The translations under genes and the position numbers were made by a program. Below are positions 239 through 35,573 of a stretch of DNA of 36,825 nt, piece after piece; positions within the stretch are counted from its first letter, which is position 1, and each line of letters starts with the position of its first letter. Source of the DNA: a virus; the IMG/VR virus record IMGVR_UViG_3300017598_000616, positions 1-36,825 of that record; one strand, 5' to 3'. The notes under the pieces are model-generated. The model was given only the letters and a program-made list of their open reading frames with translations. It was not told where the DNA came from and made no database searches.

Positions 239-919
239 TTACTTCTTCAGATTATGTCTATTAAAAATATGGCCAGGCCCAAAATATTCTAAGAAATTCT
301 TTCTATATGGAATAAATCTAGCTAGATAGCTTCCAATATCTTTAAGCTGAAGATAGAGAAGATTTTGCTCTCCTGCTGATCCTCTAAAGATAATGGAGAT
401 AGCATATAAGTAAAATGAGAAAAATTCTAAAGGCTTAATAGGATAATTCTTCATCTTCTTAATGTAGTATCTATCATGCCAGAAGATCCTCATAGCTATA
501 GGATAGACTTCTAGTATTGGATCTTCTCTATCCCAGAAGTAATTCCTATGCTTATCTCTTATTTTCCATAGAGTCTTTATTGAATCCAACATAGGGATAT
601 GTCTAAGCATACTATGATTATACATACACCAACTATTGAGGATTAATTTAGTATGAATAGGGAGGCCTAGACTAGTCATTCCTATGATCTCATCTCTAGA
701 AATTGGAGGAAGCTCTTTATCTGGTAGCCTATAGATAGTATATAATCCTACTTGTCTGCAGCATTGATAGTATAGAGGCTTAAAATCTTCTGGCTCATAT
801 TCAAGGCCTAGAGCATACTTAGATATCGCTGTATAAATCCAGCCATTATTAGATCTAGGCTCTCTATCTATACAAGGCTTATCATGAAATAGCCCAAATT
901 TACACTGATAATCATCCAT
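239..919 (-). CDS. Hypothetical protein, 226 aa, early/replication arm
   Basis: Long ORF with an AGGGAGA Shine-Dalgarno before the ATG. No motif recognised by eye. Contains one GGCCWGGCC copy. Confidence 0.8.
   Translation of the reverse strand: MDDYQCKFGLFHDKPCIDREPRSNNGWIYTAISKYALGLEYEPEDFKPLYYQCCRQVGLYTIYRLPDKELPPISRDEIIGMTSLGLPIHTKLILNSWCMYNHSMLRHIPMLDSIKTLWKIRDKHRNYFWDREDPILEVYPIAMRIFWHDRYYIKKMKNYPIKPLEFFSFYLYAISIIFRGSAGEQNLLYLQLKDIGSYLARFIPYRKNFLEYFGPGHIFNRHNLKK
271..279. repeat. GGCCWGGCC iterated palindrome copy (GGCCAGGCC)
   Basis: Exact match read from the sequence. Coded as GG-CCT-GGC-C (Pro-Gly) on the minus strand. Confidence 0.95.
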
Positions 920-995
920 TAGGATCTCCCTGCATTGTAAAAAAATCTACATATTAATAAGACTAATATTATATATCCAATTACTCCCAGCCAGA

Positions 996-1235
996 TCATT
1001 TTTTTCTATCCTGTGCATTTTTTACCGATGCAGTATATTCGATTAATCCAGATCTTAATCTTTTTAATCTTGTAGTATATTTTCCTAGCTCATTGCTTAC
1101 AAAAAATGGCCTGCCAGCAGTATAGGTAGCATGAGCATTATCTTTAAATTTCTCTCTTTGAAATTCTATATTCTTAATCTCATAGAAGATATCCCATTGC
1201 TTTTTATCAAATCCTGCTGTATTTATCTCCATCAT
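996..1235 (-). CDS. Hypothetical protein, about 79 aa
   Basis: The track ORF is 996..1262. I prefer the ATG at 1235 because it overlaps the upstream stop as ATGA (translational coupling). No recognisable motif. Confidence 0.65.
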   Translation of the reverse strand: MMEINTAGFDKKQWDIFYEIKNIEFQREKFKDNAHATYTAGRPFFVSNELGKYTTRLKRLRSGLIEYTASVKNAQDRKK

Positions 1236-1822
1236 GATATGGCCCTTTCTTCCCACTTGCATATCTTCCTAAGTCCCAGCCATCTCCAGTCTCTTCTGCA
1301 TACTTTTACTCTGGCAGTCTGTAGATTGAATAGCTTCTTATATGCAGCAACGTAAGCTTTATTAAATTGATAGCAAATAGATGAAGGCCTTTCATCACTC
1401 ATAAAGAAATCATGAGAAAATCCCATTAAGTGGCCATATTCATGCAGGATATTAGAGCCAATATTCATGGTATGCCTTTTATCAAAATATTTAGTATTTA
1501 CTCTAATGATTCTATCTACCTTAGGCTTTGTATATCCTATAACTTTCTTCCAAGTATAGTAGTCATCTACAAAGATATCTAGCTCATGATCCATCTGGGG
1601 CTCATGTATATCTGCTCCATGCATGATCATATTATATACCTCAGAATTAGTGAGATTTTTATACTTAGATCTCTCCCCTTTGAAGGGCTTAAGCTTTAGG
1701 ATCTGATCTCTAAAGATAGATGAGTTAATTACTGTATGCATCTCTAAGGATACTTGGCCCATCTTATCTCTTCTAATCTCATTATCCATTCTAGTAGCAT
1801 CTAATTTGATAGTAGTAATCAT
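1232..1822 (-). CDS. Zinc metallopeptidase with the metzincin-type motif HExxHxxGxxH(D)
   Basis: HEYGHLMGFSHD at aa 127-138 (nt 1409..1444) matches the extended HEXXHXXGXXH/D zinc-binding consensus. The ORF is coupled to both neighbours by 4-nt overlaps. Confidence 0.75.
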   Translation of the reverse strand: MITTIKLDATRMDNEIRRDKMGQVSLEMHTVINSSIFRDQILKLKPFKGERSKYKNLTNSEVYNMIMHGADIHEPQMDHELDIFVDDYYTWKKVIGYTKPKVDRIIRVNTKYFDKRHTMNIGSNILHEYGHLMGFSHDFFMSDERPSSICYQFNKAYVAAYKKLFNLQTARVKVCRRDWRWLGLRKICKWEERAIS

Positions 1823-2121: not shown

Positions 2122-2212
2122 TCTCCTCTATTTCATCCTCATCATTATCATAAGGATCATAATTTTTATTATATTCTTCTTCTGCTTTCTCAAAATTTTT
2201 GGGCCAATTCAT
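2078..2212 (-). CDS. Small, highly acidic protein, 44 aa (below the track cutoff)
   Basis: My translation is MNWPKNFEKAEEEYNKNYDPYDNDEDEIEENEDDGSEIDGSSSE. Its ATG overlaps the upstream stop as ATGA. Its 3' end overlaps the start of 1819..2121. Confidence 0.45.
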   Translation of the reverse strand: MNWPKNFEKAEEEYNKNYDPYDNDEDEIEENEDDGSEIDGSSSE

Positions 2213-2346
2213 AGCTCCCCTATTAGTATATAATTATCAGGTATCATATCCATCTCTAAAGCAAAAAAGTATCCATCTAGAAATACATTGCATCCCAGCT
2301 CATCCTCAATTGCATCATACCAAACTAAAGTCACTCTACTACTCAT
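2209..2346 (-). CDS. Small hypothetical protein, 45 aa (below the track cutoff)
   Basis: My translation is MSSRVTLVWYDAIEDELGCNVFLDGYFFALEMDMIPDNYILIGEL. ATGA overlaps with the methyltransferase stop and with the next ORF start fill the gap 2213..2342 exactly. Confidence 0.5.
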   Translation of the reverse strand: MSSRVTLVWYDAIEDELGCNVFLDGYFFALEMDMIPDNYILIGEL

Positions 2347-3185
2347 AATTTCATCCCCTTTAATATGTGAGCTATTACATCTACTGTCCAGCCATTGCCT
2401 AGCATCCTATATCTCTGATGATCTGATACTCCAGCAGTATAATCTTCTGGCACAGTCTGTAGAAATTCACATTCATTAGGAGTCAATTTTCTAAGCTTAC
2501 AAGCATTATCTAGTATCATAGATTTAGATGAGAAAGTACTGCAGCCATCCCCAGTAAGGAGAGTATTAGACTTTCCATCCATATAAGCTCTACTCTCTAC
2601 ATAAGAGGCCTGGCCTTTAGGGTATCTAGTAGATCTGCTCCATCTTACTATATTCTTCATCTTAATATCTAAATCTTCTGGCTGCTCTACAGGTATATTA
2701 GTCCAGTAAAGCCTTCTTCTATTTTGAGCAGATACTAAGGATGAATTTATCTCTATAGGCTCTACTCCAAGATGCTCAGTGATTATATCTTCAGAAGCTT
2801 TCTTCATTTTTACATTCTCTAATAAGAAATATTTAGGCTTAACTTCTTTTAATATTCTTACATATTCAAAAAATAATTTGGATCTAGGATCTTCAAAATC
2901 TAATTGCTTTCCTAGGAAGCTGAATCCTTGGCAGGGACTTCCTCCCAAAAGTAGATCTATCTTAGGTAGTATTAATGTAGATACTCCTTTCTCATGATCT
3001 ACATACATCTTCTGGCCTACTTCTTTCACATCTCCTAGAAGTAGAGTATTAGGAAAATTCTTAGCAGCTATTTCTATAGAGTGCCTATCTATCTCAGAGG
3101 CCATATAGAATCCCACTGGGATTCCAAGCTTCTTAAGTGCTATTTGGCCACAACTCATGCCATCAAATAATGATAATACATTCAT
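2343..3185 (-). CDS. DNA (cytosine-5)-methyltransferase, orphan (no restriction enzyme partner seen)
   Basis: C5-MTase motifs appear in order: I LFDGMSCG, IV GGSPCQGFS (catalytic PCQ), VI LLENV, VIII QNRRRLYW, X LGNGWTV. Confidence 0.9.
   Translation of the reverse strand: MNVLSLFDGMSCGQIALKKLGIPVGFYMASEIDRHSIEIAAKNFPNTLLLGDVKEVGQKMYVDHEKGVSTLILPKIDLLLGGSPCQGFSFLGKQLDFEDPRSKLFFEYVRILKEVKPKYFLLENVKMKKASEDIITEHLGVEPIEINSSLVSAQNRRRLYWTNIPVEQPEDLDIKMKNIVRWSRSTRYPKGQASYVESRAYMDGKSNTLLTGDGCSTFSSKSMILDNACKLRKLTPNECEFLQTVPEDYTAGVSDHQRYRMLGNGWTVDVIAHILKGMKL
2607..2615. repeat. GGCCWGGCC copy (GGCCTGGCC) inside the methyltransferase gene
   Basis: Exact match. Coded as GGC-CAG-GCC (Gly-Gln-Ala) on the minus strand. 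Confidence 0.95.
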
Positions 3186-5260
3186 TAAGCCTCCATATAT
3201 TTCTTAAATTTTTCATACTCTTTCTCTGATCTTTCATCTATGTAGATATTCTGCATTTTACACTCCATCCCTGCAGGAGTAGTGAGATATCCATCCTCAT
3301 AGTCTGGACTCCAGATATTAGCATCTAGCCTTATGAGATCTGCTCCTTCCTTATCATCAAAATAATGGATAAAAGCTTCCCTCATCTCTTTAGCAAAAGT
3401 ATCTATAAGGGCATGATTATCTGAGGGATACTCTATGTAAAGAGCATCATGCAAGGGCATTATAACTTTTAATTTTTCTTGCTGACATAATTGAATAGCT
3501 TTCCTTAAAATGCAGCCGCCAAATCCCTGAATAGGATTATTAGATACTGATCTCTTATTCCTATTATCTCCAAAAGTGATAAAGCCATCTGGCATCTTAT
3601 GAAATCCCCTCAGGCTATAATCAAATCTGATATCTTCTATCCATTCAGCATACTTAGGATAAGCCCCCATGAATTTATTAATTAGATCCTGAGCATCTTT
3701 TTTAGTATGAGGCTTTCCAGTATCATCTGTAAGCTTCCTAGCTAATGCTTCAGCTCCCATAGAGTATGAGATTCCTAATGTAGTGGCCTTAAATACATTC
3801 CTTTCTATTTTATAATCTTCTTTCTTCCCTTCCCAAGGTACTGCTCCAGCCAGCTTAGCGAAATAGAGATATACATCTCCAGATTTATAAGCCTCTATCA
3901 TATTTTTATCACCACTTACTAGGGCCGATATTAAAAACTCCTGAGAGCCATAATCAATTCCACAAATAGCGTGGCCAGGCCTGGCCTGAATGAGACTCCT
4001 CATCCAAGATGCTTTTAATGGCAAGTACCCTGTACTTTTGGGCTGAAAGCGGCCCGTAGAAGATCCATATGGATTTAAATAAGATCTCACTCTCCCATCT
4101 TCTCCTAGAGAATCAAAGAAAGTGGCCTTATTTTTAGCATTTTTAGCTTTTGGAAGGAATCCATTTAAAGATTGTTTAGTCTTAAGATACCTAAGCATCT
4201 GAGCCCCTACATTATTCCTAGGAAAATCATGCCTATATGAGAAATGCTTCTCCCATGCTTCCAGAGATAAGCTCCAATCTCCTTCAGGCTTAGTCTTAGA
4301 AGGTAGAGTCCTGAGCCAATTATCTTTATATTTAGATTTCTCTATCCACTCTTTTAGTGGCTTTTGAAACATAGAATATCTCTGGAGATTCTTATTCCAT
4401 CTGAAGAATTTTATATCCTCATCAAATTGACTATTTATATCTTCTGATAATTCTTTTAGTAGATCCTTTACTGATCCAGCAAATTTCTTCACTTTAGCTA
4501 CTTCTACTGGATATCCTGTAGCTTGCATTAAAGCAGTCCTAGCAGCAGATTCCCCTCTATAAAGTACTTCTTCAGGAGTTACATCTATAGGCTTATTTGC
4601 TTTAAATTCTAAATCAAGGGCTTCCATCTCTTCTCGAGTATATTCATATGCTCTCTTAAAATAGTCTTTATATTCTGCTTTTATAACTTTCCAGCAAGGT
4701 ACTAAGTGGACTATATCTGAGGTACAGTACTCAATTATTTGCTTCTTATTTATTAATATCTTCTCAGCATTATTGGATATGATTAGATCCCTCATCTCAT
4801 TCTTATGATCAGTATCTATCTTAATCCCTAGTATTTTATATAGGCAGCCAGCCAGATTCTTAGGAGGCTTAGAATTATTTACTCCAGCATCAGATCCATA
4901 TGCAGGAGGAGTAGTAAATACTTCCCTCCCCTCTATAAGCTGCTTTCCATACATGAACTTATGATTATGATTAGTGAGCATCTTCCACTCTACGGCAAGA
5001 TCCAGCCAATTACACTTAGTAGGATCTATCCCTAGGCTGATAAAAGCGTGGCCTTCAGCTACTACATTATAAGATACAAAGATATAGCCAGCTTCTCTTA
5101 GATCTAATAGATGTACTTTAAGATCCTCCATTCTTTTGGGGGAATTATAAAGCCAATACTCAAATTTTTCTCCATTCACCGCAAATGAGCAGCATACTAG
5201 ATTTAGCTTTCTTTCAGCAGTAGTATTATATTCAAAATCTATAGGGACTAATTTAGACAT
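3185..5260 (-). CDS. Family A DNA polymerase with an N-terminal 3'-5' exonuclease domain
   Basis: Exonuclease motifs: IDFEY, YNVVAEGHAF, YCTSDIVHL. Polymerase motifs: A GIDYGSQEF, B RNVFKATTLGISYSMG, C PLHDALYIE. TAATG overlaps on both sides. Confidence 0.9.
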   Translation of the reverse strand: MSKLVPIDFEYNTTAERKLNLVCCSFAVNGEKFEYWLYNSPKRMEDLKVHLLDLREAGYIFVSYNVVAEGHAFISLGIDPTKCNWLDLAVEWKMLTNHNHKFMYGKQLIEGREVFTTPPAYGSDAGVNNSKPPKNLAGCLYKILGIKIDTDHKNEMRDLIISNNAEKILINKKQIIEYCTSDIVHLVPCWKVIKAEYKDYFKRAYEYTREEMEALDLEFKANKPIDVTPEEVLYRGESAARTALMQATGYPVEVAKVKKFAGSVKDLLKELSEDINSQFDEDIKFFRWNKNLQRYSMFQKPLKEWIEKSKYKDNWLRTLPSKTKPEGDWSLSLEAWEKHFSYRHDFPRNNVGAQMLRYLKTKQSLNGFLPKAKNAKNKATFFDSLGEDGRVRSYLNPYGSSTGRFQPKSTGYLPLKASWMRSLIQARPGHAICGIDYGSQEFLISALVSGDKNMIEAYKSGDVYLYFAKLAGAVPWEGKKEDYKIERNVFKATTLGISYSMGAEALARKLTDDTGKPHTKKDAQDLINKFMGAYPKYAEWIEDIRFDYSLRGFHKMPDGFITFGDNRNKRSVSNNPIQGFGGCILRKAIQLCQQEKLKVIMPLHDALYIEYPSDNHALIDTFAKEMREAFIHYFDDKEGADLIRLDANIWSPDYEDGYLTTPAGMECKMQNIYIDERSEKEYEKFKKYMEA
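3973..3986. repeat. Double (overlapping) GGCCWGGCC: GGCCAGGCCTGGCC
   Basis: Exact match. Three GGCC units separated by A and T, inside PolA (…IQARPGHAI…). Confidence 0.95.
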
Positions 5261-7788: not shown

Positions 7789-7792
7789 AAAA

Positions 7793-8090: not shown

Positions 8091-8579
8091 ATGGCGAAAA
8101 AGCGTAAAGTAGGAAGGCCTACTAAATATAATGATGATATTCCAGAGAAAATGCTGGATTTTTTCGATATTCCACTAACATATAAGACTACTGAGCAGAA
8201 GATGAGTGCTTCTGGAGTGGTTATGGATCTAGAAGTAGTAAAAGCTTCTCCTATGCCTACTTTTGAGGGATTTTCCTTAGAAATTGGAGTATGTATGGAT
8301 ACATTGACTGAGTGGAAAGCTAATCATAAGCCATTTTCCTTAGCTTATAGAGTCTGTAAGGGGATTCAGAAGAGATTCCTCATGAGCCATGGATTATCTG
8401 GAGCATATAATAGTAATTTTGCCAAATTCGTAGCTATCAACTGTACAGATATGGTAGATAGATCTGAGGTAAAATCTGAGAATGATCATACTGTAAAAGA
8501 GTATGGCCTGGCCTTTGATTTATCTAAGACTCCAGAAGAAGTAGCTAAGATTAATGAAGCTAAGAAGAAAAAAGACTAA
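8091..8579 (+). CDS. terS: Terminase small subunit
   Basis: N-terminal MAKKRKVGRPTKYNDD is typical of the helix-turn-helix N-termini of small terminases. It sits upstream of terL. Confidence 0.7.
   Translation: MAKKRKVGRPTKYNDDIPEKMLDFFDIPLTYKTTEQKMSASGVVMDLEVVKASPMPTFEGFSLEIGVCMDTLTEWKANHKPFSLAYRVCKGIQKRFLMSHGLSGAYNSNFAKFVAINCTDMVDRSEVKSENDHTVKEYGLAFDLSKTPEEVAKINEAKKKKD
8505..8513. repeat. GGCCWGGCC copy (GGCCTGGCC)
   Basis: Exact match. GGC-CTG-GCC (Gly-Leu-Ala) in terS. Confidence 0.95.
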
Positions 8580-9002: not shown

Positions 9003-10396
9003 AGGAATCCCCAGAGGAAGTCCTATCATTTACTACGTTTGATCCTACTCCTATCAATTGGCAGTATAGAGTATTATACGATCAGGCCAATAACTGGGAA
9101 TATGATAAGGGAGTAATAATAGCCCTTTACAGTGGAGCAGTAGGATCAGCAAAAACGACATTAGCAGCGACTCAGGCCATATCCCATTGCCTAAACTTCA
9201 AAAGAGCCAAGTGCTTATTAGGGAGAAGATCCCTTCCAGATTTAAGAGATACAATATATAGCGATATAGTAGAGCTACTAGATGCAGATGAGCAGCTAAT
9301 AGAGGGAGAAGATTATATCACCTTTGATCCTATATGTAGGATTATCTTCCCTAAGATGAAGAGTGAGATATTCTCTAGGACATGGGGAGATAAGAAGTAT
9401 AAGAAATTCAGATCCCTTAAGCTATCAATGGCCATCATAGAAGAAGCTACTGAGAATAATATAGAGGATAGGACTGCCATTAGAGAGATCATGCAACGTC
9501 TAAACAGAATTAGTCACATTAAGTCTAATACCTTGATTTTATTAACGAATCCAGACTCTCCAGGCCACTGGATACATAAGGATATCATTGAGAAATCTCA
9601 TGAAGATGGAATCCATGTTTACTACTCTCTCACTACAGATAATCCCTTCTTAGATAAAAATTACATAGATTTTCTACGCAAGACTCTTACAAAGAAGGAG
9701 GCTGATAGGCAGCTTAGGGGAATGTGGGTAGAAATTGACTCAGATAGAATTTACTATGCCTATACTTCAGAAGTGAATTTTAAGAGAGATGAAGAGTATC
9801 AAATAGATCCTAGATATAGAGTGGATTTGATGATGGATTTTAATATCGGAAAAGGAAAGCCAATGAGCTGGGCCCTAGGCCAATATGTAGATGATACCTT
9901 CCATATCTTCAAAGAGTATCATGCTTTCACTATGAGAACTGGCCAGCTATTACAGGAGATGGCTGAGGATGGAGCTTTTGATCTCCCAGTAAAATGGGGA
10001 GTATTTGGAGATGCTTCTGGGAGATACAATGATACTAGATCCAATTGGAGTGATATTGAGATAGTAGAGCAGTACATAGCAAATCATAGAAGGCCAGATG
10101 GCACTATGCTTGAGTATGAAATCAATATACCTAGAGCAAATCCTCCACTGAGAAGAAGGCATAATACGGCCAATGGATTAATGGAGAATGATCTAGGAGA
10201 GACTAGATTCTATGTATATAAAGGCTGCGAATGGGTAGATGAAGGATTTCGATTGACTGAGCCTAAGAAGGGAGCAGATAATATTGAGAATGATAATCTA
10301 GAGCAGCAGCATGTGACCACTGGAATTACATATTGGTGCGATTATATAACGCATAAATATATAGATAAGAGCAGATCATCAATGAGAAAGAAATAA
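8984..10396 (+). CDS. terL: Terminase large subunit
   Basis: Walker A YSGAVGSAKTT and Walker B LSMAIIEEATE. The C-terminal half carries conserved acidic residues (MMDFNIGKG, FGDASG), consistent with an RNase-H-like nuclease. Confidence 0.88.
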   Translation: MEAFKIEESPEEVLSFTTFDPTPINWQYRVLYDQANNWEYDKGVIIALYSGAVGSAKTTLAATQAISHCLNFKRAKCLLGRRSLPDLRDTIYSDIVELLDADEQLIEGEDYITFDPICRIIFPKMKSEIFSRTWGDKKYKKFRSLKLSMAIIEEATENNIEDRTAIREIMQRLNRISHIKSNTLILLTNPDSPGHWIHKDIIEKSHEDGIHVYYSLTTDNPFLDKNYIDFLRKTLTKKEADRQLRGMWVEIDSDRIYYAYTSEVNFKRDEEYQIDPRYRVDLMMDFNIGKGKPMSWALGQYVDDTFHIFKEYHAFTMRTGQLLQEMAEDGAFDLPVKWGVFGDASGRYNDTRSNWSDIEIVEQYIANHRRPDGTMLEYEINIPRANPPLRRRHNTANGLMENDLGETRFYVYKGCEWVDEGFRLTEPKKGADNIENDNLEQQHVTTGITYWCDYITHKYIDKSRSSMRKK

Positions 10397-12229: not shown

Positions 12230-12775
12230 ATGGCTCAGCAAAAATTTACAGCTAAAGTATCTAAAAAATACACTGAAGAAGAGAGAGTGGCCATAGGAGT
12301 AGAGATGATAGATGCTATCATAGCTAGGACTAAGGCTGGAAAGGATAAAGATAATAAAAGCTTCAAAGGAGCTGCTGGAAAGTACTCTAAAGGATATACA
12401 TCTTCACTTGATTTCAAGCTAGGAGGAAAATCTAAGAGCCCAGTAAATCTCACATTATCTGGAGAGATGCTTAATGCATTGACTGTACTAGATACAGCAG
12501 ATGGAGAAATCACTATAGGTATCCCAGCCGATGATGATTTTAATAATAAGAAAGCAGAAGGGAATATCACTGGCTCATATGGAAAATCTAAGCCAGATTC
12601 ATCTAAGGCCAGGGACTTTATGGGAATGAGTAAGTCTCAAGTAAAAGACATAACTAGCAAATACCCTACTACTAAGAAGGGAGTAAATGCAGATCTCATT
12701 AAACTACTAGGATCTGCTGCAGCATCAGAGACTCTGGCCGAGTCTTTCTTTGATATAGAGGAGTTTAATTCATGA
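12230..12775 (+). CDS. Head-module hypothetical protein (possible minor head or morphogenesis protein)
   Basis: AGGAGG Shine-Dalgarno. Sits between portal and scaffold. The LTLSGEMLNAL segment resembles the LTATGQLLKSL segment of the next ORF. Confidence 0.7.
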   Translation: MAQQKFTAKVSKKYTEEERVAIGVEMIDAIIARTKAGKDKDNKSFKGAAGKYSKGYTSSLDFKLGGKSKSPVNLTLSGEMLNALTVLDTADGEITIGIPADDDFNNKKAEGNITGSYGKSKPDSSKARDFMGMSKSQVKDITSKYPTTKKGVNADLIKLLGSAAASETLAESFFDIEEFNS

Positions 12776-25408: not shown

Positions 25409-27574
25409 ATGAGGAATTTTATCACATTTTTAATAGCTCTGGGGATCTTCCTAAGCTATAAGGCTCAGGCCCAAATTAAGCCAGCCCAGGCCCAGTACTT
25501 ACAGGAGAAAGGATTCCTAGTAAATCCCTCTTTTGAGCAGGGATACAAAGGCTGGACTATTGCAGGATGCTCTAAAAGTCTAGTAAGTGAGATTCCTTTC
25601 TTAAATAAATCTTTGAAATTAACTTGCGTAGGAGAATCATTCTCTATAAAGCAAGAAGATACTTCTCATATTGAGCTTAAGGGCCAGCAGGGGATCTATG
25701 ATCTGCAAGTAAAAGCAGATTTTCAAGGTACTAGAGTAAGCTTCCTAGGGGGAGGGACTAGATATTCTGAGATAAATGTAAATCCTAGAGATGGATTCAC
25801 TAGAGTTATAGATACTCCTTTTACAGTAAATGGCAATTCCAATGGGATAGAAATCTTCTCAGATTCTATTGTCACTGGGGAGATCATAATAGATAATGTA
25901 AAATTAGGCTTATCTTCTGAAGGATATCTGAAAGAAGATCTAGACGATACTCCAGTAGGGACTGTCCTAGCTTATAGCTCTGAGGTTATTCCAGAATCAT
26001 ACTTACTAGCTAATGGGGATTGTAAATCTAGAGCAGAATATTCTGCTCTCTTTGATGTATTAGGAGTAACTATAGGTACTTGCGACTCAGGGGCAGGAGC
26101 AAATACTGGATTTTTAATCCCAGATCTTAGAGATAAGTTCCTAAAAGGATTGACTGGAGGGAGAGTAGCTTTTGATACTCAGGCAGATTCTACTGCTAAA
26201 AATGGCCTATCAGTTTCTAATAATACAGTAACTTCTGGGAGTCAAAATGCAAATCATAATCATGCAGATGGGCTAGGATTTGCAGGATCATCAGGCCAGA
26301 CTAGATATGGGCTAATAAATCTAAGCGGTGATTCAGTTATGAATGACTATGGGGCAAATGCCTATGCTGCTACTTATTCTACATATGCCAGTACTTCTCT
26401 AAATTTACAGAATCATCAACACTCAGTTACATCTAATGTAACTCTAGGAGCAGGGGATTCTAAGACTCAGCCAGAGAATACTGCAGTAGTATATATCATA
26501 AAAGCCAAGGGGAGATCTCCTAGGACTATAGTATCTCAGAGAAGCTTAGCTCCAGAGATGGCTGGATTCATAACGTGGGCGGCCTTTGATGGAGATGTAA
26601 AAGGATTTTTAAAAGCAGATGGATCTTGTATCTCTAAGAGTGCATATCCAGACTATGAAGAGAATGTATCTAATCTCTATGGAGATTGTAACTATAATGG
26701 GCAGGGAGCTAACACAGGATTACTCCTTCCAGATCTAGTCACTGGCAATAGATTTGCTAGAATGGCAGGGGGAGGATTGGCAGTAGGTACTGCTTTAAAT
26801 GATACTACTGCTAAAAATGGATTGACTGCATCGGCATCTTCAGTTGGGAATCATACTCATACTTCATATATAAATTACTCTAATGGCGGCGGTGGTGTCC
26901 AATATAATGGGGGAGGAGTATCTGCCTATTCTGCAATTCAAACTGGAGGGGCAGGAGCGCATGGGCATACAATTACAATAGGAGCAGGAGATTCTGAGAC
27001 TGCTCCAAATAGCCTAGCTTTAGTAGCCTATGTGAGAATGGAAAATAGCTCAGAGATAAATGGAGAAATTAAAAACGCTCCAAAATTAGGAGATTGCAAG
27101 TGGAGCTTACTATCCACTACTGATTTTAATTCACTTCATACAGGGGATTGGGTACGACTTCAAGGCCAGTCACTAACTGGGACTGATATAGATTCTCAAT
27201 TCGGTGTATCTTCTCTCCCAAATGCAGTAGGATCTGGGGCATTTTTAAGAATGAATGGAGGAGCTTCAGGATCACTGAGATCTGTACAGAGCCAAGATAC
27301 TAAATTAAATGGTATCACAGCCTCATCTCCTGCCCATGGGCATCCTTATAGGACTTTAAATACTACAGGATCTCCAGACTCTTATGGAGGGGGAATGATC
27401 ATGGATGGGAATGGGGCCCATACTAATCAGGCAGCATATACAGGCACTCCAGCCAATGAAAGATCAAAAGTAATAGGTGGTACAGCAGCTACAATAAATC
27501 TAAATAATGATGGCCAAGAGACTAGACCTAGCAACGTATCTTTAAACTTTTACTGCCTAGTAGATAATAACTAA
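25409..27574 (+). CDS. Protein with a Sec-type signal peptide, a carbohydrate-binding-like jelly-roll domain and three phage tail-collar domain repeats
   Basis: N-terminus MRNFITFLIALGIFLSYKAQAQ. NPSFEQGYKGWT…IIIDNVKLG is CBM-like. Three modules carry tail-collar signatures: GFLIPDLRDKFLKG, GLLLPDLVTGNRFARMAGG, SSLPNAVGSGAFLRMNGG. Each ends G(A)GDS(K/E)T(Q/A)P(E/N)… or GQETRPSN. HxH motifs present: NHNH, HQH, HTH, HGH (twice). Confidence 0.8.
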   Translation: MRNFITFLIALGIFLSYKAQAQIKPAQAQYLQEKGFLVNPSFEQGYKGWTIAGCSKSLVSEIPFLNKSLKLTCVGESFSIKQEDTSHIELKGQQGIYDLQVKADFQGTRVSFLGGGTRYSEINVNPRDGFTRVIDTPFTVNGNSNGIEIFSDSIVTGEIIIDNVKLGLSSEGYLKEDLDDTPVGTVLAYSSEVIPESYLLANGDCKSRAEYSALFDVLGVTIGTCDSGAGANTGFLIPDLRDKFLKGLTGGRVAFDTQADSTAKNGLSVSNNTVTSGSQNANHNHADGLGFAGSSGQTRYGLINLSGDSVMNDYGANAYAATYSTYASTSLNLQNHQHSVTSNVTLGAGDSKTQPENTAVVYIIKAKGRSPRTIVSQRSLAPEMAGFITWAAFDGDVKGFLKADGSCISKSAYPDYEENVSNLYGDCNYNGQGANTGLLLPDLVTGNRFARMAGGGLAVGTALNDTTAKNGLTASASSVGNHTHTSYINYSNGGGGVQYNGGGVSAYSAIQTGGAGAHGHTITIGAGDSETAPNSLALVAYVRMENSSEINGEIKNAPKLGDCKWSLLSTTDFNSLHTGDWVRLQGQSLTGTDIDSQFGVSSLPNAVGSGAFLRMNGGASGSLRSVQSQDTKLNGITASSPAHGHPYRTLNTTGSPDSYGGGMIMDGNGAHTNQAAYTGTPANERSKVIGGTAATINLNNDGQETRPSNVSLNFYCLVDNN

Positions 27575-29115: not shown

Positions 29116-31546
29116 GGTAACTGAAGTCTTTAGAAATCTAGCAGATCAGATAGATAAAGAGCCAGTAATAATATTAAAGATCAAAGATTCCAAGTACTTA
29201 TACGGCTCAGCCCCTATAAAAGAGACTGCGAGATGGGATGATCCTAGAATTACATGGGATAATCCAGATAATATTAGATGGGATGGAGAGATAGTAAGAT
29301 CAGATTCTAAGCCTTATATAATGCTTAATAAATCTAAGACTACAAAAAATATTACTCAGCAGCTATTAGTAGATAAAGGGGGCTCAGGATCAGTAGCTAC
29401 TATGGCCATTGAGCTAGTAGATTATAGAGGGGAAGTAGCAAAAGATCTTTCTTTTGATCAGATAGGAGATCCCCTAGGAGCTGAAGCTGAAGTATTTTTA
29501 GGATTTGAAGGATGCAGATATCCTCAGGATTTTATAAGTATCATAAAAGGTTACGTCGATGATCTTACTTATAGTGCTGGATCTATTACAGTATCAGTAG
29601 CTTTGGCCACAAATTTGATAAGAAATGCTTCTTTTGAGAAGTATCAATCTGCTTTATCTACTACAATAAATTCAACTACTACTACTATTCCAGTAAATAA
29701 TGTAGAGCCTTATATAGAATCTCAGGATGCTCTCACTTCTTATATAAGAATAGATGATGAGATAATGGAAGTAGTAGCTAAAAATGCTACAAGCTTTACA
29801 GTAATTAGATCAAGATTAAATACCTTGCCTTCAGATCATGATTTTGATGCTGAAGTAGTGAGCCTTTATAGGCTTAGAGGGAATCCCCTAGATCTAACTT
29901 TAAAGCTATTACACTCAAAATTAGGCAATGATTTTGCTTCCACTGATTATAAAATAGTGGCCTTAGAAAGAGTAGCTTCTACTCAATTAATAGATAATGC
30001 TATAGTAGTAGATGAGCTAAATATAGAAGAAAGACTGGGCCTAGTAGTTGATGATTTAATCAGCCTCCAAGGTACTGCATCAAATGATGGGACTTATACT
30101 ATCAAATCTTTTGGTACTCTAGATACTGGAAGATCTTATATCATCACAAATGAAGAAATAGATGGAGAAGAGACTGGGCTAGAGATAGATCTAATAGTAA
30201 AATCCAAGTATAATGTACTTCCAGATGGATCATCTCTCAGTATTGATTATGTAGATACTAAGCAATTTGAAGAGACTCAGACTCTATTCTCAGCTTCATT
30301 CATTGACTATGATTTTATCCTCAAAGATACCCTAGAAAATACTAGAGATTTCATAATAAAAGAGATTTGTAAGCCCCAGGCCTTATATCTCATAAGTAGG
30401 AAAGCTAAAACCAGCATAAAATATACAGCTCCTCCATTCAGTTTAGATCCTACTCCTACGCTGGATACTAAGAATCTAGTAAAATTGACTAAGGTACTGA
30501 TAAAAAGATCCACTCATAAATACTTATTAAATAGTATTATATTTAGATATAATCAGGGGATATTAGAAGATAAATTCTTTGATAAATACATAAAATTAAA
30601 TTCAGACTCCTTCTCTAGAATCCCAGTAGGGAGAAAGAGAATGGCCATAGATTCTACAGGATTTGGCAGGACTTCAGAAGTACTTCAGACTGTAGATAGA
30701 GTAGCTACTAGAATCCTAAATAGATACAAATATGGGGCTAGATATGTAAAGAATATTACTACTCTCTTCTCTACAGGAGTTACTTTAGAGATTGGAGATA
30801 TAGTATTCTTTGGAGGCTCAGATACTCAGCTTGTAAATCTTCAGACTGGGGAGAGAGATCTTCCTCCAGCTCAATATGAGATTATCAATAAAAAGCTAGG
30901 TATTGGCACAGTCCAATTAGAATTATTAGAGACTGGATTTGGGATAGATGGGATATTTGCTACATTTTCTCCAGCATCCATACTGGCTGAAGGATCTACA
31001 GTAGATAGATTAATCCTAGGCAATATGTGGGGATCAGATCAGTACGATAAAGAAAGAGATAAATGGAATAGATGGCCAGGCCTGAAGCTTAGAGTAAGAT
31101 CAGATGATTATACCTTTGATGAAGTAGTTACTTTTAAAGGACTAGATCCAGTGACTAATAATGGATTGCTACTAGATCCCCCATTATCTACTGCTCCAGC
31201 AGCAGGATATTATGTAGAATTAGCTAAATATACTGATTACACTACAGAAGAATTAGAAGAAATTGCCAAGCTTACTCATACTTTTACTATGCCTTCTTCA
31301 CTACTTACAGGAGTTACTGATGCTAAGACTTTCACAGTAGATCCTTCAGAAGTAGCTAAATTTACTGAAGGGATGGAGATAAATGTACATAGGGAAGATT
31401 ATACAGCAGACTCTAGTTTGGGGATTATTGACGATATCACTTCAAATACAATAACATTAGTAGAGAATTTAAATATAAGCCCAGCTATAGGGGATAGGCT
31501 AGAAGTCTATGCATATGCTGAAGCTAAAGGATATAGGATTTTATAA
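29105..31546 (+). CDS. Large tail tip or baseplate protein, 813 aa
   Basis: The longest structural ORF, located in the distal tail module. Function is inferred from size and position. Confidence 0.7.
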   Translation: MAYKVTEVFRNLADQIDKEPVIILKIKDSKYLYGSAPIKETARWDDPRITWDNPDNIRWDGEIVRSDSKPYIMLNKSKTTKNITQQLLVDKGGSGSVATMAIELVDYRGEVAKDLSFDQIGDPLGAEAEVFLGFEGCRYPQDFISIIKGYVDDLTYSAGSITVSVALATNLIRNASFEKYQSALSTTINSTTTTIPVNNVEPYIESQDALTSYIRIDDEIMEVVAKNATSFTVIRSRLNTLPSDHDFDAEVVSLYRLRGNPLDLTLKLLHSKLGNDFASTDYKIVALERVASTQLIDNAIVVDELNIEERLGLVVDDLISLQGTASNDGTYTIKSFGTLDTGRSYIITNEEIDGEETGLEIDLIVKSKYNVLPDGSSLSIDYVDTKQFEETQTLFSASFIDYDFILKDTLENTRDFIIKEICKPQALYLISRKAKTSIKYTAPPFSLDPTPTLDTKNLVKLTKVLIKRSTHKYLLNSIIFRYNQGILEDKFFDKYIKLNSDSFSRIPVGRKRMAIDSTGFGRTSEVLQTVDRVATRILNRYKYGARYVKNITTLFSTGVTLEIGDIVFFGGSDTQLVNLQTGERDLPPAQYEIINKKLGIGTVQLELLETGFGIDGIFATFSPASILAEGSTVDRLILGNMWGSDQYDKERDKWNRWPGLKLRVRSDDYTFDEVVTFKGLDPVTNNGLLLDPPLSTAPAAGYYVELAKYTDYTTEELEEIAKLTHTFTMPSSLLTGVTDAKTFTVDPSEVAKFTEGMEINVHREDYTADSSLGIIDDITSNTITLVENLNISPAIGDRLEVYAYAEAKGYRIL
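31074..31082. repeat. GGCCWGGCC copy (GGCCAGGCC)
   Basis: Exact match. Coded T-GG-CCA-GGC-C (Trp-Pro-Gly). Confidence 0.95.
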
Positions 31547-32446: not shown

Positions 32447-32832
32447 TTTTATTTAAACATGAGAGAGATAGAGAGTTGATATTCGGAATCCAGCCTATAT
32501 TATTTATGATCCTACTAGATATGAGTATCTATGCAAAAGAGAAGCATGGGATAGATCTCACAGTCACGGCTACTTCATCTACTGAAGAAGAAGATCTTAA
32601 GCTGGGGAGAAAATCATCAGCCCATAGAGAGAAGAGAGCTTTAGATATTAGAAGCAAGGATATAAATGTATATATCACTCAGGATATAGTAACTTATATT
32701 AATAATAAGGAAGAGTATAAGCATTATAGATACATGAGCTTCAGTGGAATAGAAAGATTAGCATATGTACATACAATGCCAGGCCAATCTGAGCATATCC
32801 ATTTGGCCTTAAATAGTAGATTTAAAATGTAA
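32443..32832 (+). CDS. Peptidase M15-family cell-wall hydrolase (endolysin or virion-associated lysin)
   Basis: SAHREKRALDIRS (SxHxxxxAxD zinc-ligand motif) plus the C-terminal EHIHLAL histidine motif, typical of VanY / L-Ala-D-Glu peptidase-type enzymes. Confidence 0.7.
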   Translation: MILFKHERDRELIFGIQPILFMILLDMSIYAKEKHGIDLTVTATSSTEEEDLKLGRKSSAHREKRALDIRSKDINVYITQDIVTYINNKEEYKHYRYMSFSGIERLAYVHTMPGQSEHIHLALNSRFKM

Positions 32833-32905: not shown

Positions 32906-33712
32906 ATGAAGATATCAGAATTAGCCCTGCCTAGCAAGGGAGAAATTAATACTTATCACATAGCAGGGGATTGGCATACAGAAGCCATGAGCCTATCCTG
33001 CCTAAAGATTATGCTGGGCCAGGCCCAGAGCCTACCGAAAAAGAAAAGAAAATTAATTATCAATGGGGATTTTATAGATGCTCCTTTCCTTATGGAGAAG
33101 AGTGCTGATTTTAGAAAATGGATAAAGAGATCCGATGGGATGGAGGAATACTTCCTCCCTAAAGCTGAAGAAGAATTAGCATGGGCCAATACTGTATTAG
33201 ATAGACTCCAGAAGGTATATTCAGAGATCATTTTTATTGAAGGGAATCATGACTGGAGATATCGTAACTTCATGAATATAGCTCCAGGCCCTTATGCCCA
33301 TAATTTTGATTATAGACTCCAATTATCCCTAGATAAAAGGGGGATAAATTATGTTAATTATAATGACTGGCTGGATATTGGCCCAGATTGGACTATTACT
33401 CATGGCATGTACCATGGAACTACATGCCTAAAAAAGCATTATGAAGCGGCCAGAAGTAGAAATGTAATATTCTCTCATGTACATACTGATGCTAGGATGG
33501 CTTTTACAGGCAGGGGAGATACAATACATGCATACAGCCTCCCAGCCTTCTGTAATTTGAATCCACATTATATTAAAAATAGGGAGAATAACTGGGATAT
33601 GGGCTTCTCTACACTAAATGTAAGGCATGATGGAAAGGCCCACTATAATTCCTTTGTAATTAGAGATGATAAGTTGGTACTTCCCGATGGGAAGATAATA
33701 ACAGGCTATTAA
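32906..33712 (+). CDS. Calcineurin-like metallophosphoesterase
   Basis: Motifs in order: GDWH, INGDFID, GNHDWR, THGMYHG, FSHVH. Confidence 0.8.
   Translation: MKISELALPSKGEINTYHIAGDWHTEAMSLSCLKIMLGQAQSLPKKKRKLIINGDFIDAPFLMEKSADFRKWIKRSDGMEEYFLPKAEEELAWANTVLDRLQKVYSEIIFIEGNHDWRYRNFMNIAPGPYAHNFDYRLQLSLDKRGINYVNYNDWLDIGPDWTITHGMYHGTTCLKKHYEAARSRNVIFSHVHTDARMAFTGRGDTIHAYSLPAFCNLNPHYIKNRENNWDMGFSTLNVRHDGKAHYNSFVIRDDKLVLPDGKIITGY
33017..33025. repeat. GGCCWGGCC copy (GGCCAGGCC)
   Basis: Exact match. GGC-CAG-GCC (Gly-Gln-Ala). Confidence 0.95.
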
Positions 33713-34097
33713 TTTCTATCTGGGCCAGATCTATATCCCATGGATATTCAGATACATACAGCTTTTTTACAAATACATCATTTAGGCCCATGGCTTTAAA
33801 TAGCTTATCCTGCAGTATTTTTACATAATTATCTATATCTCCAGAGGCCTCATTGATTCTAGATTTATCTTTTATAAAAAAATTACTATTGAATATCTGT
33901 ATCTTTAATTCTAGAATATCTTTAGACAGATCAAAACCCTTCCCATAAGAAATTAATGCAGCCGCATTATCCTCTAAAAATAATCCCAACTCTTCATCGT
34001 AGGCCAGCCCTGCTCCTGTCTTTACTCTATGCCCAGATCTAGTATTCCGATAATATCCATTATATGAAAGGAGCTTAAAAGGGATTACTATCCTCAT
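33660..34097 (-). CDS. rusA: RusA-family Holliday junction resolvase
   Basis: SGDIDNYVKILQDKLFKAMGLNDVFV matches the RusA DxDNxxKxxxDxL signature. Last gene of the leftward arm. Confidence 0.75.
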   Translation of the reverse strand: MRIVIPFKLLSYNGYYRNTRSGHRVKTGAGLAYDEELGLFLEDNAAALISYGKGFDLSKDILELKIQIFNSNFFIKDKSRINEASGDIDNYVKILQDKLFKAMGLNDVFVKKLYVSEYPWDIDLAQIEINSLLLSSHREVPTYHL

Positions 34098-34291
34098 GCT
34101 TTCTTAATAGAGTAAGCTACAGATACTACTTCTCTGGTATTTATATCCATATTAGTAGCCCCATATAGTGATAGATTCTCAAGATCAGCCCCATTCTCTA
34201 TCTCTTTCTCTATAACTTCTATAATCTCTCTAGAAGAATAGGCCTCAAAAAAAGAGCCAGTCTCATGATTTAATAATATTAATTTATTCAT
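34094..34291 (-). CDS. Hypothetical protein, 65 aa
   Basis: ORF with 4-nt and 8-nt overlaps to its neighbours. Confidence 0.6.
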   Translation of the reverse strand: MNKLILLNHETGSFFEAYSSREIIEVIEKEIENGADLENLSLYGATNMDINTREVVSVAYSIKKA

Positions 34292-35573
34292 ATATTTTCC
34301 CTATATCCTTCTGCTTTCTATTTATCATATTAAATAATTTTCTATCAAATTCACTATTGAACATATAGTAATAGAAGCATTTTTTTAACTGCCCTATTCT
34401 CAGCATCCTTCTAATGGCCTGCTCTAAATCTGCTGGCACGAATGGGAAATCATTAAAGATCATGTAATTAGCTGAAGTGATATTATATCCAGTAGAAGCT
34501 GAGCCAATAGTGGCCACTAATACTCCTTCATCACTTGCATTAAAAGCATTAATAATATCATGCCTAGTATCTGCTGGCACAGTCCCATCTATATATTTTA
34601 CATCTAATTTCTTAGCTAATTCTCTGGCCGCATCTTGATGGCATGTAAATATTATTACTTTCTTATCCTGCTCTAATATATCCTTAGCAAATTTATAAGT
34701 ATCAGCTACTTTAGATAAGGCATTGGCAGCTTTCATACTCATATAAATAGGATCATCAGGATCTATTTTAAATCTATCGTAGGCAGCTTTAAGATCATCT
34801 TCATATTTCTTAGAAGCTTTATTCATTATATCAGTATGGATATCCTCAGGGAGATCTAATACTTCTGCTGCTCTCCTTCTGATATATACTCTCCCTACTA
34901 ATTCCTTCAGCTCGGGTATTCTCTTCACTCCATCAAATCTTACTATAGGTATTCTATTGACTTCAAAAGTCCTTTCATATGAGAATCTATGGCAAAATTT
35001 ATAATACAATCTATGGAAGGGCTTAAATTCTGGGAAGCTATCTCCATAGAAGCATATCTGTAGTAAGCTCCAAAATTCAGTCACTCTATTTTTAATAGGA
35101 GTCCCACTCATGAGCATCACTCTTTTAGGCTTCATCTCTTTTACTAGATTATGAAATATCATAGATCTGAGGGGAGTATGGCTCTTAAGATAGTGAGCTT
35201 CATCGGCTATTATCAGATCATAATATGGGATATCTTTCTTAAGGCATCTAAGCCTTTTAGATTTCTTTATTTTCTTAGTCTTTTTATTTACTATTTTCTC
35301 TATATCAAATTCTGCAAATTTATTGAGATCATGATAGCTGATCACATCAATGGCCAGGCCCTCAGTGAATTTCTCTATCTCTTCCAGCCAATTCTTTCTA
35401 AGGTAGGCTGGAGCTACTACTAGAGTCCTAGATTCAGTCTCTACTGCTACTGCTAATGAAGTGGCAGTCTTTCCTAGGCCCATCTCAAATCCATTGATAT
35501 GATAAGGATGAGAGAGTGCAAATTCCACTCCCTCATTTTGATGATCTAATAGCTTTCCTTTAAAAGTGGCCAT
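34284..35573 (-). CDS. SNF2-family (SF2) helicase/ATPase
   Basis: LLDHQNEGVEF, motif I GLGKT, motif II IADEAHYLKS, motif VI QAIRRMLRIGQ. Confidence 0.88.
   Translation of the reverse strand: MATFKGKLLDHQNEGVEFALSHPYHINGFEMGLGKTATSLAVAVETESRTLVVAPAYLRKNWLEEIEKFTEGLAIDVISYHDLNKFAEFDIEKIVNKKTKKIKKSKRLRCLKKDIPYYDLIIADEAHYLKSHTPLRSMIFHNLVKEMKPKRVMLMSGTPIKNRVTEFWSLLQICFYGDSFPEFKPFHRLYYKFCHRFSYERTFEVNRIPIVRFDGVKRIPELKELVGRVYIRRRAAEVLDLPEDIHTDIMNKASKKYEDDLKAAYDRFKIDPDDPIYMSMKAANALSKVADTYKFAKDILEQDKKVIIFTCHQDAARELAKKLDVKYIDGTVPADTRHDIINAFNASDEGVLVATIGSASTGYNITSANYMIFNDFPFVPADLEQAIRRMLRIGQLKKCFYYYMFNSEFDRKLFNMINRKQKDIGKIYE
35352..35360. repeat. GGCCWGGCC copy (GGCCAGGCC)
   Basis: Exact match. Coded GGC-CTG-GCC (Gly-Leu-Ala) on the minus strand in the SNF2 gene. 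Confidence 0.95.

Follow-up and report, generated by a model that had tools for sequence, protein, structure and literature searches.

Introduction

Here I discuss a nine-base palindrome, GGCCWGGCC, that is iterated through the DNA of an uncultured marine tailed phage, IMG/VR record IMGVR_UViG_3300017598_000616, of which the whole stretch of 36,825 nucleotides was analysed (hereafter the window) and which represents a complete genome with a unit length of 36,704 bp. This word is a lineage-specific palindrome, iterated at the level of the DNA and built from the tetranucleotide GGCC. Beyond what a preliminary description of the same DNA had reported, GGCC is the enriched unit, with GGCC up and GGTC down, and the CCWGG at the centre of the word is forbidden in this genome unless it is covered by GGCC. 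As far as the literature was searched, a virus-borne iterated palindrome of this sort has not been described before: the string GGCCWGGCC was not found in any paper, nor was anything on over-represented palindromes in phages, and what was found treats their avoidance (PMC6286503). Relatives are cited below by handle where they must be told apart; L018 is a TARA relative of 21.5 kb with ~76% nucleotide identity to the window, L016 and L017 are the nearest kin, and L010 and L196 together make up the 28.4-kb contig Ga0316201_10000085 (15.8 kb of it in L010).

A word written into thirteen genes

An exact search of the window returned 15 copies of GGCCWGGCC at 13 loci, two of which are overlapping doubles, with starts at 271, 2607, 3973, 3978, 8505, 11874, 11879, 14487, 16229, 20604, 22216, 24194, 31074, 33017 and 35352. 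Every copy lies within an open reading frame (ORF), the 13 loci falling in 13 genes on both strands and in codon phases of 10, 4 and 1; the preliminary description had listed the same copies, their coding location and the same phases, and all were recovered. The expected number was 0.11 (maximum 2) over 100 dinucleotide-preserving shuffles and 0.65 (maximum 4) over 1000 amino-acid-preserving shuffles of synonymous codons within genes, the latter being the kind of null that had been proposed at the outset as a check. Generic codon-pair bias had been named as a way in which the pattern could dissolve, and a Markov model of codon pairs, applied to the actual proteins, produced only 2.3 ± 1.3 copies (maximum 7 in 300 runs) with the motif codons in the training set and 0.8 ± 0.8 with them excluded, placing the observed 15 about 9 standard deviations above the most generous null, the one trained on the motif itself. 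Two further tests were set aside: a maximal-order Markov model is uninformative, since each 8-mer of GGCCWGGCC exists solely inside GGCCWGGCC, and junction-preserving codon-swap shuffles mixed poorly and did not keep the GGCC counts, so the codon-pair model was used instead.

The word is also sharp. There are just 3 one-mismatch variants in the window, about the chance level, deviating at word positions 1, 2 and 7, so that exact copies stand to one-mismatch copies as 15:3 where chance would give ~1:35, and across the word-bearing lineages the ratios are 15:3, 4:1, 3:2, 4:3 and 2:2. When pairs of GGCC are tabulated by the gap between them, up to 40 bases, the 1-base gap occurs in 15 cases and every other gap in 0-3, and no conservation of the flanks beyond the 9 bp was seen among the copies. 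With a 9-bp unit, genic copies, unconserved flanks and no arrays, the word is not like repetitive extragenic palindromes or their mosaic elements (REP/BIME), miniature inverted-repeat transposable elements, CRISPR or tandem repeats. The 13 loci appear to be spaced more evenly than random (coefficient of variation of the gaps 0.54 versus 0.90, P = 0.016, with doubles merged post hoc), and the smallest gap between them is 1366 bp (P = 0.0003, again post hoc for n = 13 loci). As for the degenerate centre, a G or C there would create CpG, which is avoided in this genome, so that the central W may be a consequence of CpG avoidance and not a requirement.

The copies are as follows.

271..279: GGCCAGGCC, in a 226-amino-acid ORF (239-919, minus strand), read GG-CCT-GGC-C, Gly-Pro-Gly-His
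2607..2615: GGCCTGGCC, in the C5-methyltransferase gene, read GGC-CAG-GCC, Gly-Gln-Ala
3973..3986: overlapping double GGCCAGGCCTGGCC, in the PolA gene, at a place where L018 carries a CCAGG without cover, TACCAGGAG
8505..8513: GGCCTGGCC, Gly-Leu-Ala in the gene for the small terminase; L018 is identical here and L019 has GGCCTAGCT
11874..11887: overlapping double GGCCTGGCCTGGCC, close to the 3' end of the gene for the putative portal; L017 retains the double as GGCCAGGCCAGGCC, with both central bases flipped and Leu changed to Gln
14487..14495: GGCCAGGCC, in the capsid gene, Gly-Gln-Ala (GGC-CAG-GCC); retained in L017, the same peptide written as GGACAGGCT (GGA-CAG-GCT) in L018 and L010
16229..16237: GGCCTGGCC, Gly-Leu-Ala (GGC-CTG-GCC); L017 has the same peptide as GGGTTAGCT (GGG-TTA-GCT), with four synonymous differences
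20604..20612: GGCCTGGCC, Gly-Leu-Ala; L018 has GATATGAGC, Asp-Met-Ser
22216..22224: GGCCTGGCC, Gly-Leu-Ala, in a 621-amino-acid ORF that carried the earlier label tape measure and has no Pfam match
24194..24202: GGCCTGGCC, Gly-Leu-Ala, in the gene for a 630-amino-acid tail/fibre protein
31074..31082: GGCCAGGCC, in the gene for an 813-amino-acid tail protein, read TGG-CCA-GGC-CTG, Trp-Pro-Gly-Leu
33017..33025: GGCCAGGCC, in the metallophosphoesterase gene, Gly-Gln-Ala
35352..35360: GGCCAGGCC, encoding Gly-Leu-Ala on the minus strand within the gene for the SNF2 helicase

The peptides able to encode the word are Gly-Leu/Gln-Ala, [Gly/Arg/Trp]-Pro-Gly-[Leu/Pro/His/Gln/Arg] and Ala-[Arg/Trp]-Pro, and the word fills 15 of the 20 compatible contexts in the window (10 of 14 G[LQ]A, all 4 [GRW]PG[LPHQR] and 1 of 2 A[RW]P); by arithmetic from codon frequencies, codon usage alone would write ~0.3% of Gly-Leu-Ala in this way. 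As had been suspected, the codons of the word are disfavoured elsewhere (GGC accounts for 18% of the Gly codons, CTG for 8% of those for Leu and GCC for 20% of those for Ala), and the pair GGC-CTG is confined to the word, being used in none of the 58 other Gly-Leu pairs. The carrier peptides themselves are in excess over residue-shuffled proteins, with 14 G[LQ]A versus 6.7 ± 2.5 (P = 0.006) and 4 [GRW]PG[LPHQR] versus 0.57 (P = 0.0035), and thus the DNA word shapes the proteins. Orthologs reveal two routes by which it does so, synonymous conversion (at 16229 and 14487) and amino-acid replacement (at 20604, where the difference from L018 means that the word cost three amino-acid changes); in L017, moreover, the word encodes Gly-Gln-Ala at a place where the window has Gly-Ser-Ala. 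Orthologous sites differ from those in L017 and L018 by 2-5 changes, mostly synonymous, and with three phases, both strands and a near-filled set of contexts, the proposal that the pressure acts on the DNA word and not on the peptide is upheld.

It is therefore scarcely credible that the word simply follows from bias in codons, codon pairs or dinucleotides, with no pressure of its own. Extreme context-dependent codon choice does lift the expectation from 0.1 to 0.8-2.3, but the count exceeds even the null that had learned the motif, GGC-CTG is never used outside the word, the carrier peptides are in excess, and only the 1-base spacing of GGCC is enriched.

GGCC as the unit

GGCC occurs 166 times in the window versus 70.9 ± 5.9 in synonymous shuffles, and no other 4-mer is as strongly over-represented (z = 16). 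When the 9-mers are left aside, Gly is written GGC in 54% of cases before a codon starting with C versus 4-21% otherwise, and Ala is written GCC in 46% after a codon ending in G versus 12-13% otherwise, with 0 of 15 after a codon ending in C; GGCC is thus the unit of the word, and codons are picked so that GGCC forms at their junctions. With trinucleotide composition corrected for (order-2 Markov), GGCC stands at 1.73x and its counterpart GGTC/GACC at 0.17x (5 versus 28.6), while GGTT, GGTG, GGTA, GGCT, AGCT, AGTT, CCAG and CTAG are all at 0.7-1.3x of expectation and the products of deamination at the outer C, GGCT/AGCC, are close to it. By analogy this pairing fits the asymmetry that would be expected if T:G mismatches in GG(T/C)C were resolved towards C, with the caution that the shortfall of GGTC, ~24 sites, makes up just a third of the excess of GGCC (~70). 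The hexamer TGGCCA occurs 34 times in the window versus 9 expected.

The composition of this genome is peculiar in other respects. CpG has an observed/expected ratio (o/e) of 0.16, with 194 CpG in 36.8 kb, no CCGG, no CGCG and a single GCGC, and among the relatives this ratio runs from 0.03-0.05 (L016, L195) up to 1.09 (Ga0316201). CpG methylation followed by deamination was considered as the cause of the loss and rejected: TpG/CpA is not raised (0.90), which makes a vertebrate-style deamination unlikely, and the loss does not follow the methyltransferase gene. GT/AC is depleted on both strands (0.52) unless flanked by A/T, as it is in L018, L017, L016 and L195 too, with AAC/GTT at 0.17, ACC/GGT at 0.26 and BGTB words at 0.04-0.27, and as a result Val is 78% GTA (GTT 6%), Asn 93% AAT, Asp 94% GAT and Thr 70% ACT. 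Within this CpG-poor genome there are also CpG-containing glycine runs of the (GGC)n type, GGCGGCGG, with four overlapping copies at 24365-24382 in the 630-amino-acid tail/fibre gene and one at 26885-26892 in the next gene. The oriented plus-strand 9-10-mers GGAGTAGATC, AAGGTACTG, CTGGGGAGA and CTACTGCTAA recur 5-6 times each (for example at 11834, 12919, 19017, 19537 and 23033) and are probably short repeated peptides exposed by a very narrow codon usage.

CCWGG under GGCC cover

The window contains 22 CCWGG sites, about the number expected from codon usage, and all 22 overlap GGCC: 15 on both sides, as the word, and seven on one side, with the covering flank always a full GG or CC and never a single G or C. 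These seven half-covered sites deviate from the word at its outer positions only.

9560..9566: CCAGGCC
12607..12613: GGCCAGG, conserved in L018
18480..18486: CCAGGCC
25484..25492: GCCCAGGCC, one mismatch from the word
30376..30382: CCAGGCC
32777..32785: TGCCAGGCC, one mismatch from the word
33284..33290: CCAGGCC

CCWGG is not enriched per se in the window; it is tolerated only under GGCC cover. In L018, by comparison, 52 of the 57 CCWGG are uncovered. Of all the CCWGG of L018, 41 could be mapped onto the window, where three were still CCWGG, exactly those three that are covered by GGCC, while the other 38, none of them GGCC-covered in the window, had been lost, 17 through a single base; at 76% identity ~10 of the 41 would survive by chance. 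Other relatives likewise carry many uncovered CCWGG, and the purge is common only to the window and its nearest kin, L016 and L017. A second word, the PvuII-type CAGCTG, is absent altogether (0 versus 13.9 expected from synonymous shuffles) though AGCT is abundant, and looks like a second purged restriction site; its absence indicates that site purging does operate in this genome. The simplest reading of these patterns is that the host of this sub-lineage would attack CCWGG (and CAGCTG) and that an overlapping GGCC would neutralise the site, from which it would follow that GGCC is modified on the phage DNA.

Some other accounts were tried and rejected. The 9-mers cannot all be survivors of a purge, because only about one in five of the mapped 9-mer loci (1 of ~5) had a CCWGG core in the outgroups, which means that most copies were made de novo. 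An EcoRII-type refractory spacing fails in that the half-covered sites lie 240-1050 bp from other sites, and a drive on the CCWGG core by Dcm-type very short patch (VSP) repair fails in that CCTAG is in excess (67 versus 30) and uncovered CCWGG is purged.

The word among relatives

The distribution of the word among relatives can be summarized as follows.

The window, L016 and L017 (36.8, 3.7 and 5.9 kb): word at 0.41-0.82 per kb; uncovered CCWGG purged
Ga0316201 (L010 and L196, 28.4 kb): 5 copies, 0.18 per kb; uncovered CCWGG tolerated; methyltransferase present
TARA lineage (L018 and L197, ~35 kb): 3 copies, 0.07-0.09 per kb; the syntenic place lacks the methyltransferase
L195, L198, L199, L200, L201, L202, L148 and L019 (~89 kb in all): 0 copies; methyltransferase in L148 and L200

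The enrichment that the preliminary description expected to see in close relatives is accordingly dense in L016 and L017 and moderate or weak in Ga0316201 and the TARA lineage, but it is absent from the ~89 kb of the others. Two sites are common to lineages, the one at 8505 (window and L018) and one in the portal gene (L018 and L010). The exact 9-mer is conserved with L017 at 2 of 3 loci versus a baseline of 24.5% for in-frame 9-mers, and with L018 at 1 of 5 loci versus 16.5% (small numbers in both cases), and GGCC sites rank mid-table among 4-mers for conservation. The word is a fast-turning, lineage-specific feature and not a core function of the phage group, and this makes packaging or replication a less likely explanation. 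The conservation of individual GGCC and 9-mer sites, which does not exceed that of ordinary words, fits a pressure on the whole genome better than a site-specific function.

GGCC itself ranges within this group from zero to a 6-fold excess, the window being at 4-fold. The zero belongs to L199 (logan SRR26541467_781051, 1-16307, its SNF2 66% identical to that of the window), whose 16.3 kb are free of GGCC and in which PolA has no neighbouring methyltransferase, a strategy opposite to that of the window; such a spread within one group suggests that GGCC is a contested site in these hosts. Whole regimes of composition shift between close relatives (CpG 0.05-1.09, GATC 0.11-2.1, GGCC 0-6). In Ga0316201_10000085 GATC is avoided (o/e 0.11) while CpG is normal; TGGCCA is enriched, with 17 sites in 28 kb, and so is CCATGG in the L010 part (8 sites in 15.8 kb). 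Constraints of host type thus vary sharply inside one phage group.

The C5-methyltransferase

The phage encodes one C5 cytosine methyltransferase, which is a candidate modifier of GGCC.

2343..3185, minus strand: C5 cytosine methyltransferase, 280 amino acids, PF00145

The catalytic domains of mammalian DNMT3A/B match this protein over its full length (E about 4e-22) and fit it better than bacterial M.HhaI and M.HaeIII, whose alignment is limited to its first ~130 residues at the N-terminus. Homologues number in the thousands and include phages of Pelagibacter, Roseobacter, Croceibacter, Flavobacterium, Cellulophaga, Bacteroides and Synechococcus; in three checked genomes of cultured phages encoding relatives of the enzyme the word was absent and GGCC was ordinary or depleted. 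Within the group the gene is carried by the window, Ga0316201 (whose enzyme is 49% identical), L200 and L148 (70% identical), and L148 and L200 are without the word, while L018 has ~500 bp of other sequence at the syntenic place and yet two copies of the word. Presence of the methyltransferase does not predict the word, and as a key to it the enzyme was rejected, the family being widespread and other carriers being without the word. The link that the preliminary description drew between the word and the phage's own methyltransferase is accordingly not supported: the enzyme is DNMT3-like and of a common family, L148 and L200 break the association in one direction and L018 in the other. All four carriers have GGCC at least 2.4-fold, and of the three relatives in which the region beside PolA is seen and the gene is absent (L018, L198, L199), L199 is purged of GGCC and L018 is GGCC-rich (3.3x). 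This contrast between carriers and non-carriers is suggestive of, and compatible with, an enzyme that would protect GGCC, although the three gene-less data points disagree among themselves.

A stronger version would have the 9-mer, or the CCWGG core in its context, as the very target of this orphan enzyme and hence a methylation mark. Speaking for it, among the lineages in which the syntenic region could be seen, the two densest in the word (the window and Ga0316201) both carry the gene, and highly iterated palindromes (HIPs) of cyanobacteria accompany cognate methyltransferases (PMC4390886). I nevertheless find it very doubtful, given that the enzyme of 280 residues has a short, DNMT3-like recognition region, that L148 and L200 have the gene and no copy whereas L018 and L197 have copies and no gene at the syntenic place, and that the three cultured phages with related enzymes also have no copy. 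To my knowledge, a fully specified 9-bp target would be unprecedented for such a short C5-methyltransferase.

Host scans and cell-level bias

Could the word instead be borrowed from a host? The double flanked by A/T (WWWGGCCTGGCCTGGCCWWW) was sought in 185,579 species genomes and gave 37 hits in 37 genomes, one each and about the number expected by chance; in this insensitive test no genome dense in doubles and no hit related to the phage was seen. The bare 14-mer double gave, among the matches listed in IMG/VR, chance matches in mid- and high-GC contigs. By trinucleotide signature, among the few cellular fragments compared, the best, none of them decisive, were metagenome-assembled genomes of a Thermoanaerobacteraceae, a Spirochaetia and a low-GC gammaproteobacterium, at r ~0.7.

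Bias of a related kind does exist in cells. An 8-kb chromosome fragment of Spirosoma spitsbergense (NZ_KB893466.1) and a 14.6-kb provirus from an isolate genome (IMGVR_UViG_2515154151_000001, IMG taxon 2515154151), handled here as L153 and L191, share a near-identical bias, with GGCC at 4.2-4.8x, CCWGG at 4.4-5.5x, GGTC at 0.34-0.40x and TGGCCA at 14-20x (28 sites in the 8 kb and 66 in the 14.6 kb), so a bias centred on GGCC can belong to a cell and extend to the virus residing in it. There are ten 9-mers in the provirus, and in the Spirosoma fragment the 9-mer is not above the number predicted from GGCC density (an estimate from counts). In some Cytophagales genomes TGGCCA may itself be an iterated palindrome that has gone undescribed; a literature search for TGGCCA or GGCC in Spirosoma found nothing.

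These observations bear on the idea that a host process iterates the word, or the GGCC family, across its chromosome and that the phage either shares the process or gains by resembling host DNA. The shifts in composition between close relatives resemble host regimes, the Spirosoma fragment and the provirus share an excess of GGCC, TGGCCA and CCWGG with ten 9-mers in the latter, and cyanobacterial HIPs are chromosome-wide (PMC4390886); the scan of species genomes with its single hits at chance level, weak evidence as it comes from an insensitive test, and a Spirosoma 9-mer count that follows from GGCC density pull the other way, and I consider a host origin unlikely.

A proposed shield for CCWGG and a force beyond it

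The explanation I favour, tentatively and as something short of probable, is that biased repair or selection favours GGCC as a site of cytosine modification, and that an overlapping GGCC shields CCWGG from a host nuclease. GGCC would be modified at cytosine on the phage DNA, either by the phage C5-methyltransferase or by a host enzyme; a methylation-linked bias, be it a VSP-like repair of T:G to C:G (the HIP 'ratchet') or selection for modified sites, would push the genome towards GGCC; and the host of the sub-lineage would cut CCWGG unless an overlapping GGCC modification blocked the cutting. Since the 9-mer alone combines two GGCC with cover for a CCWGG on both strands, it would then be the stable end state, with variants that expose the core being removed and Gly-Leu/Gln-Ala and Pro-Gly codons drifting into it.

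Several observations count against this explanation. In Ga0316201 the word writes 4 of 8 G[LQ]A and yet 36 of 50 CCWGG are uncovered, so shielding cannot be the whole reason for it. The 15 copies exceed a codon-pair model that already holds the GGCC-making bias (0.8-2.3), the carriers L148 and L200 are without the 9-mer, L018 is GGCC-rich without the gene, and the strong general depletion of GT/AC (0.52) and CpG (0.16) partly confounds the GGTC signal. The target of the methyltransferase is unreadable from its sequence, the match to M.HaeIII covering the catalytic N-terminal part only, and enzymes that cut CCWGG vary in their sensitivity to methylation of the outer cytosine, which makes protection plausible and not assured.

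A further positive force on the complete 9-mer, beyond shielding and GGCC-making, is real, because most copies arose de novo, because Ga0316201 keeps the word beside uncovered cores, because the codon-pair null falls short and because GGC-CTG exists only in the word. One candidate for such a force is a protein, encoded by the phage sub-lineage or by its host, that would recognise the exact 9-mer to the benefit of the phage. The word might then be a two-way Chi-like signal at which an end-degrading nuclease stops, a programmed nick site or a condensation/packaging contact, and selection in favour of numerous, well-distributed copies would preserve its sharpness. The count beyond pairwise GGCC-making, the exact copies that equal or outnumber one-mismatch ones in each word-bearing lineage, the presence of the word where uncovered CCWGG is tolerated, the gains that cost amino-acid changes and the apparently even spacing of the loci (including, post hoc, no gap below 1366 bp) all argue for it. 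Still, eight fragments of relatives with zero copies in ~89 kb are hard to reconcile with a core function, individual loci are not conserved above the in-frame baseline, Pfam and PHROG scans of the ORFs lacking annotation gave no candidate reader protein, the near-saturation of the peptides resembles the effect of a general pressure rather than a requirement for a set number of copies, and Chi sites are asymmetric whereas this word is a palindrome. I therefore regard a recognition site as rather unlikely, and I would place at the same level the broader view of a virus-borne palindrome with a function of its own, a tag that a phage or host protein would read, for example as a two-way Chi-like stop or as a self-mark that spares phage DNA.

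The phage and its kin

Bases 1-121 of the window are identical to 36705-36825, with zero copies of the motif inside this 121-bp repeat, and the contig is thus a closed circle or a circular permutation of 36,704 bp; an identical contig was assembled in the JGI samples 3300021179 and 3300021183. The carrier comes from saline-lake and marine metagenomes, and its relatives from TARA Oceans and other metagenomes. One arm encodes the small and large terminase, the putative portal, a capsid-like protein and tail proteins, and the other a DUF5906 primase-helicase-like protein, the family-A DNA polymerase, the C5-methyltransferase, a PD-(D/E)XK nuclease, the SNF2 helicase and a RusA-like protein. No tRNA genes were found in the phage genome, and Pfam/PHROG scans of its ORFs found no Vsr, Mig-like protein, MutH, restriction enzyme or site-specific binder among the encoded proteins. 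The portal had zero matches among 50,697 cultured phages, and the best matches to cultured phages were ~25% identity for the large terminase (TerL) and ~30% for PolA (25-30% overall), so there is no close cultured phage.

Two observations on the kin deserve mention in their own right. HNH/NUMOD4 homing-endonuclease genes lie between the PD-(D/E)XK nuclease and SNF2 in L200 (6896-7288) and L202 (3354-3887), and the window is without them. A distant low-GC relative, L003 (IMGVR_UViG_3300003885_000026, 1-13990; TerL 43% identical), has G+C-rich iterated words of its own, CGGCCG at 7 sites, GCCGGC at 5 and CCGGCCGG at 3, and in this fragment GGCC overlaps 12 of the 24 CCGG.

Comparison with known systems

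Chi sites and the uptake sequences of transformable bacteria (uptake signal sequences, USS, and DNA uptake sequences, DUS) are, like the word, short, dispersed and dense, written into coding DNA by a genome-wide force, and USS can shape peptides. They are asymmetric, orientation-dependent and cellular, whereas the word is palindromic and had no host counterpart in the scan of species genomes.

Restriction avoidance offers a second comparison. Overlapping sites can confer cross-protection, as when Dcm blocks StuI or MscI. The purging of uncovered CCWGG and of CAGCTG from the window, of GGCC from L199, and the survival of sites only under a second one resemble the avoidance of restriction sites by phages (PMC6286503), but avoidance explains an absence and not a 100-fold excess of the covered form. 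A natural, genome-wide use of overlap protection was not found described in the literature; if the explanation favoured here is true, this would be a natural genome that uses overlapping modification sites as a shield, and also a case of repair- or methylation-linked bias rewriting viral proteins.

Third, VSP repair at Dcm/CCWGG sites biases the genome of E. coli, and T:G glycosylases are linked to GGCC methylases, as in the case of Mig.MthI. As in VSP bias, the candidate modified site is in excess in the window (GGCC 1.73x) and its deamination product depleted (GGTC/GACC 0.17x), an effect far stronger than is known for E. coli. Unlike VSP systems, the phage has no Vsr- or Mig-like gene, CCWGG shows the opposite behaviour (CCTAG 67 versus 30) and the general depletion of GT/AC confounds the signal.

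The closest known kind, and as the preliminary description had suggested the best analogy available, is HIP1 (GCGATCGC) of cyanobacteria with its alternates (GGCGCC, rCCGGy, GCsGC and GGGATCCC). Elhai proposed a methylation-linked repair ratchet with a 'G-meC' element as the origin of HIPs (PMC4390886), and both selection and a quasi-periodic spacing have been reported for HIP1 (PMC5861425); the word 'phage' is absent from the text of these two accounts. Like HIPs, GGCCWGGCC is a short G+C-rich palindrome that exceeds its expected number 100-fold or more; it is scattered through genes in every reading frame and in non-preferred codons, contains nested or overlapping methyltransferase-type sites and is confined to a strain or lineage. 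The spacing of its 13 loci may hint at regularity, and the central GC of GGCC would fit the 'G-meC' element (PMC4390886). It differs in its carrier, a 36.7-kb tailed phage and not a cyanobacterial chromosome; in its form, a 9-bp word with a degenerate centre in which two copies of a 4-bp site surround a second site; in the absence of the site-by-site conservation above background that HIP1 has; perhaps in its one-mismatch variants, the three of which are not concentrated at the outer positions; and, compared with HIPs that have cognate methyltransferases, in that the phage C5-methyltransferase is only a candidate. HIP1-type palindromes have been known for three decades with no agreed function or origin, and here a phage has advantages, since in 36.7 kb each copy can be listed, close relatives exist with and without the word, gains visibly override amino acids, and the second site, CCWGG, depends on GGCC in an all-or-none fashion. 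That strong oligonucleotide biases of phages can be specific to a lineage within a genus-level group is also a caution for host prediction from k-mers. Should the word turn out to have a function of its own, this 37-kb genome would be the smallest system in which to test the question that HIPs have posed, function versus molecular drive.

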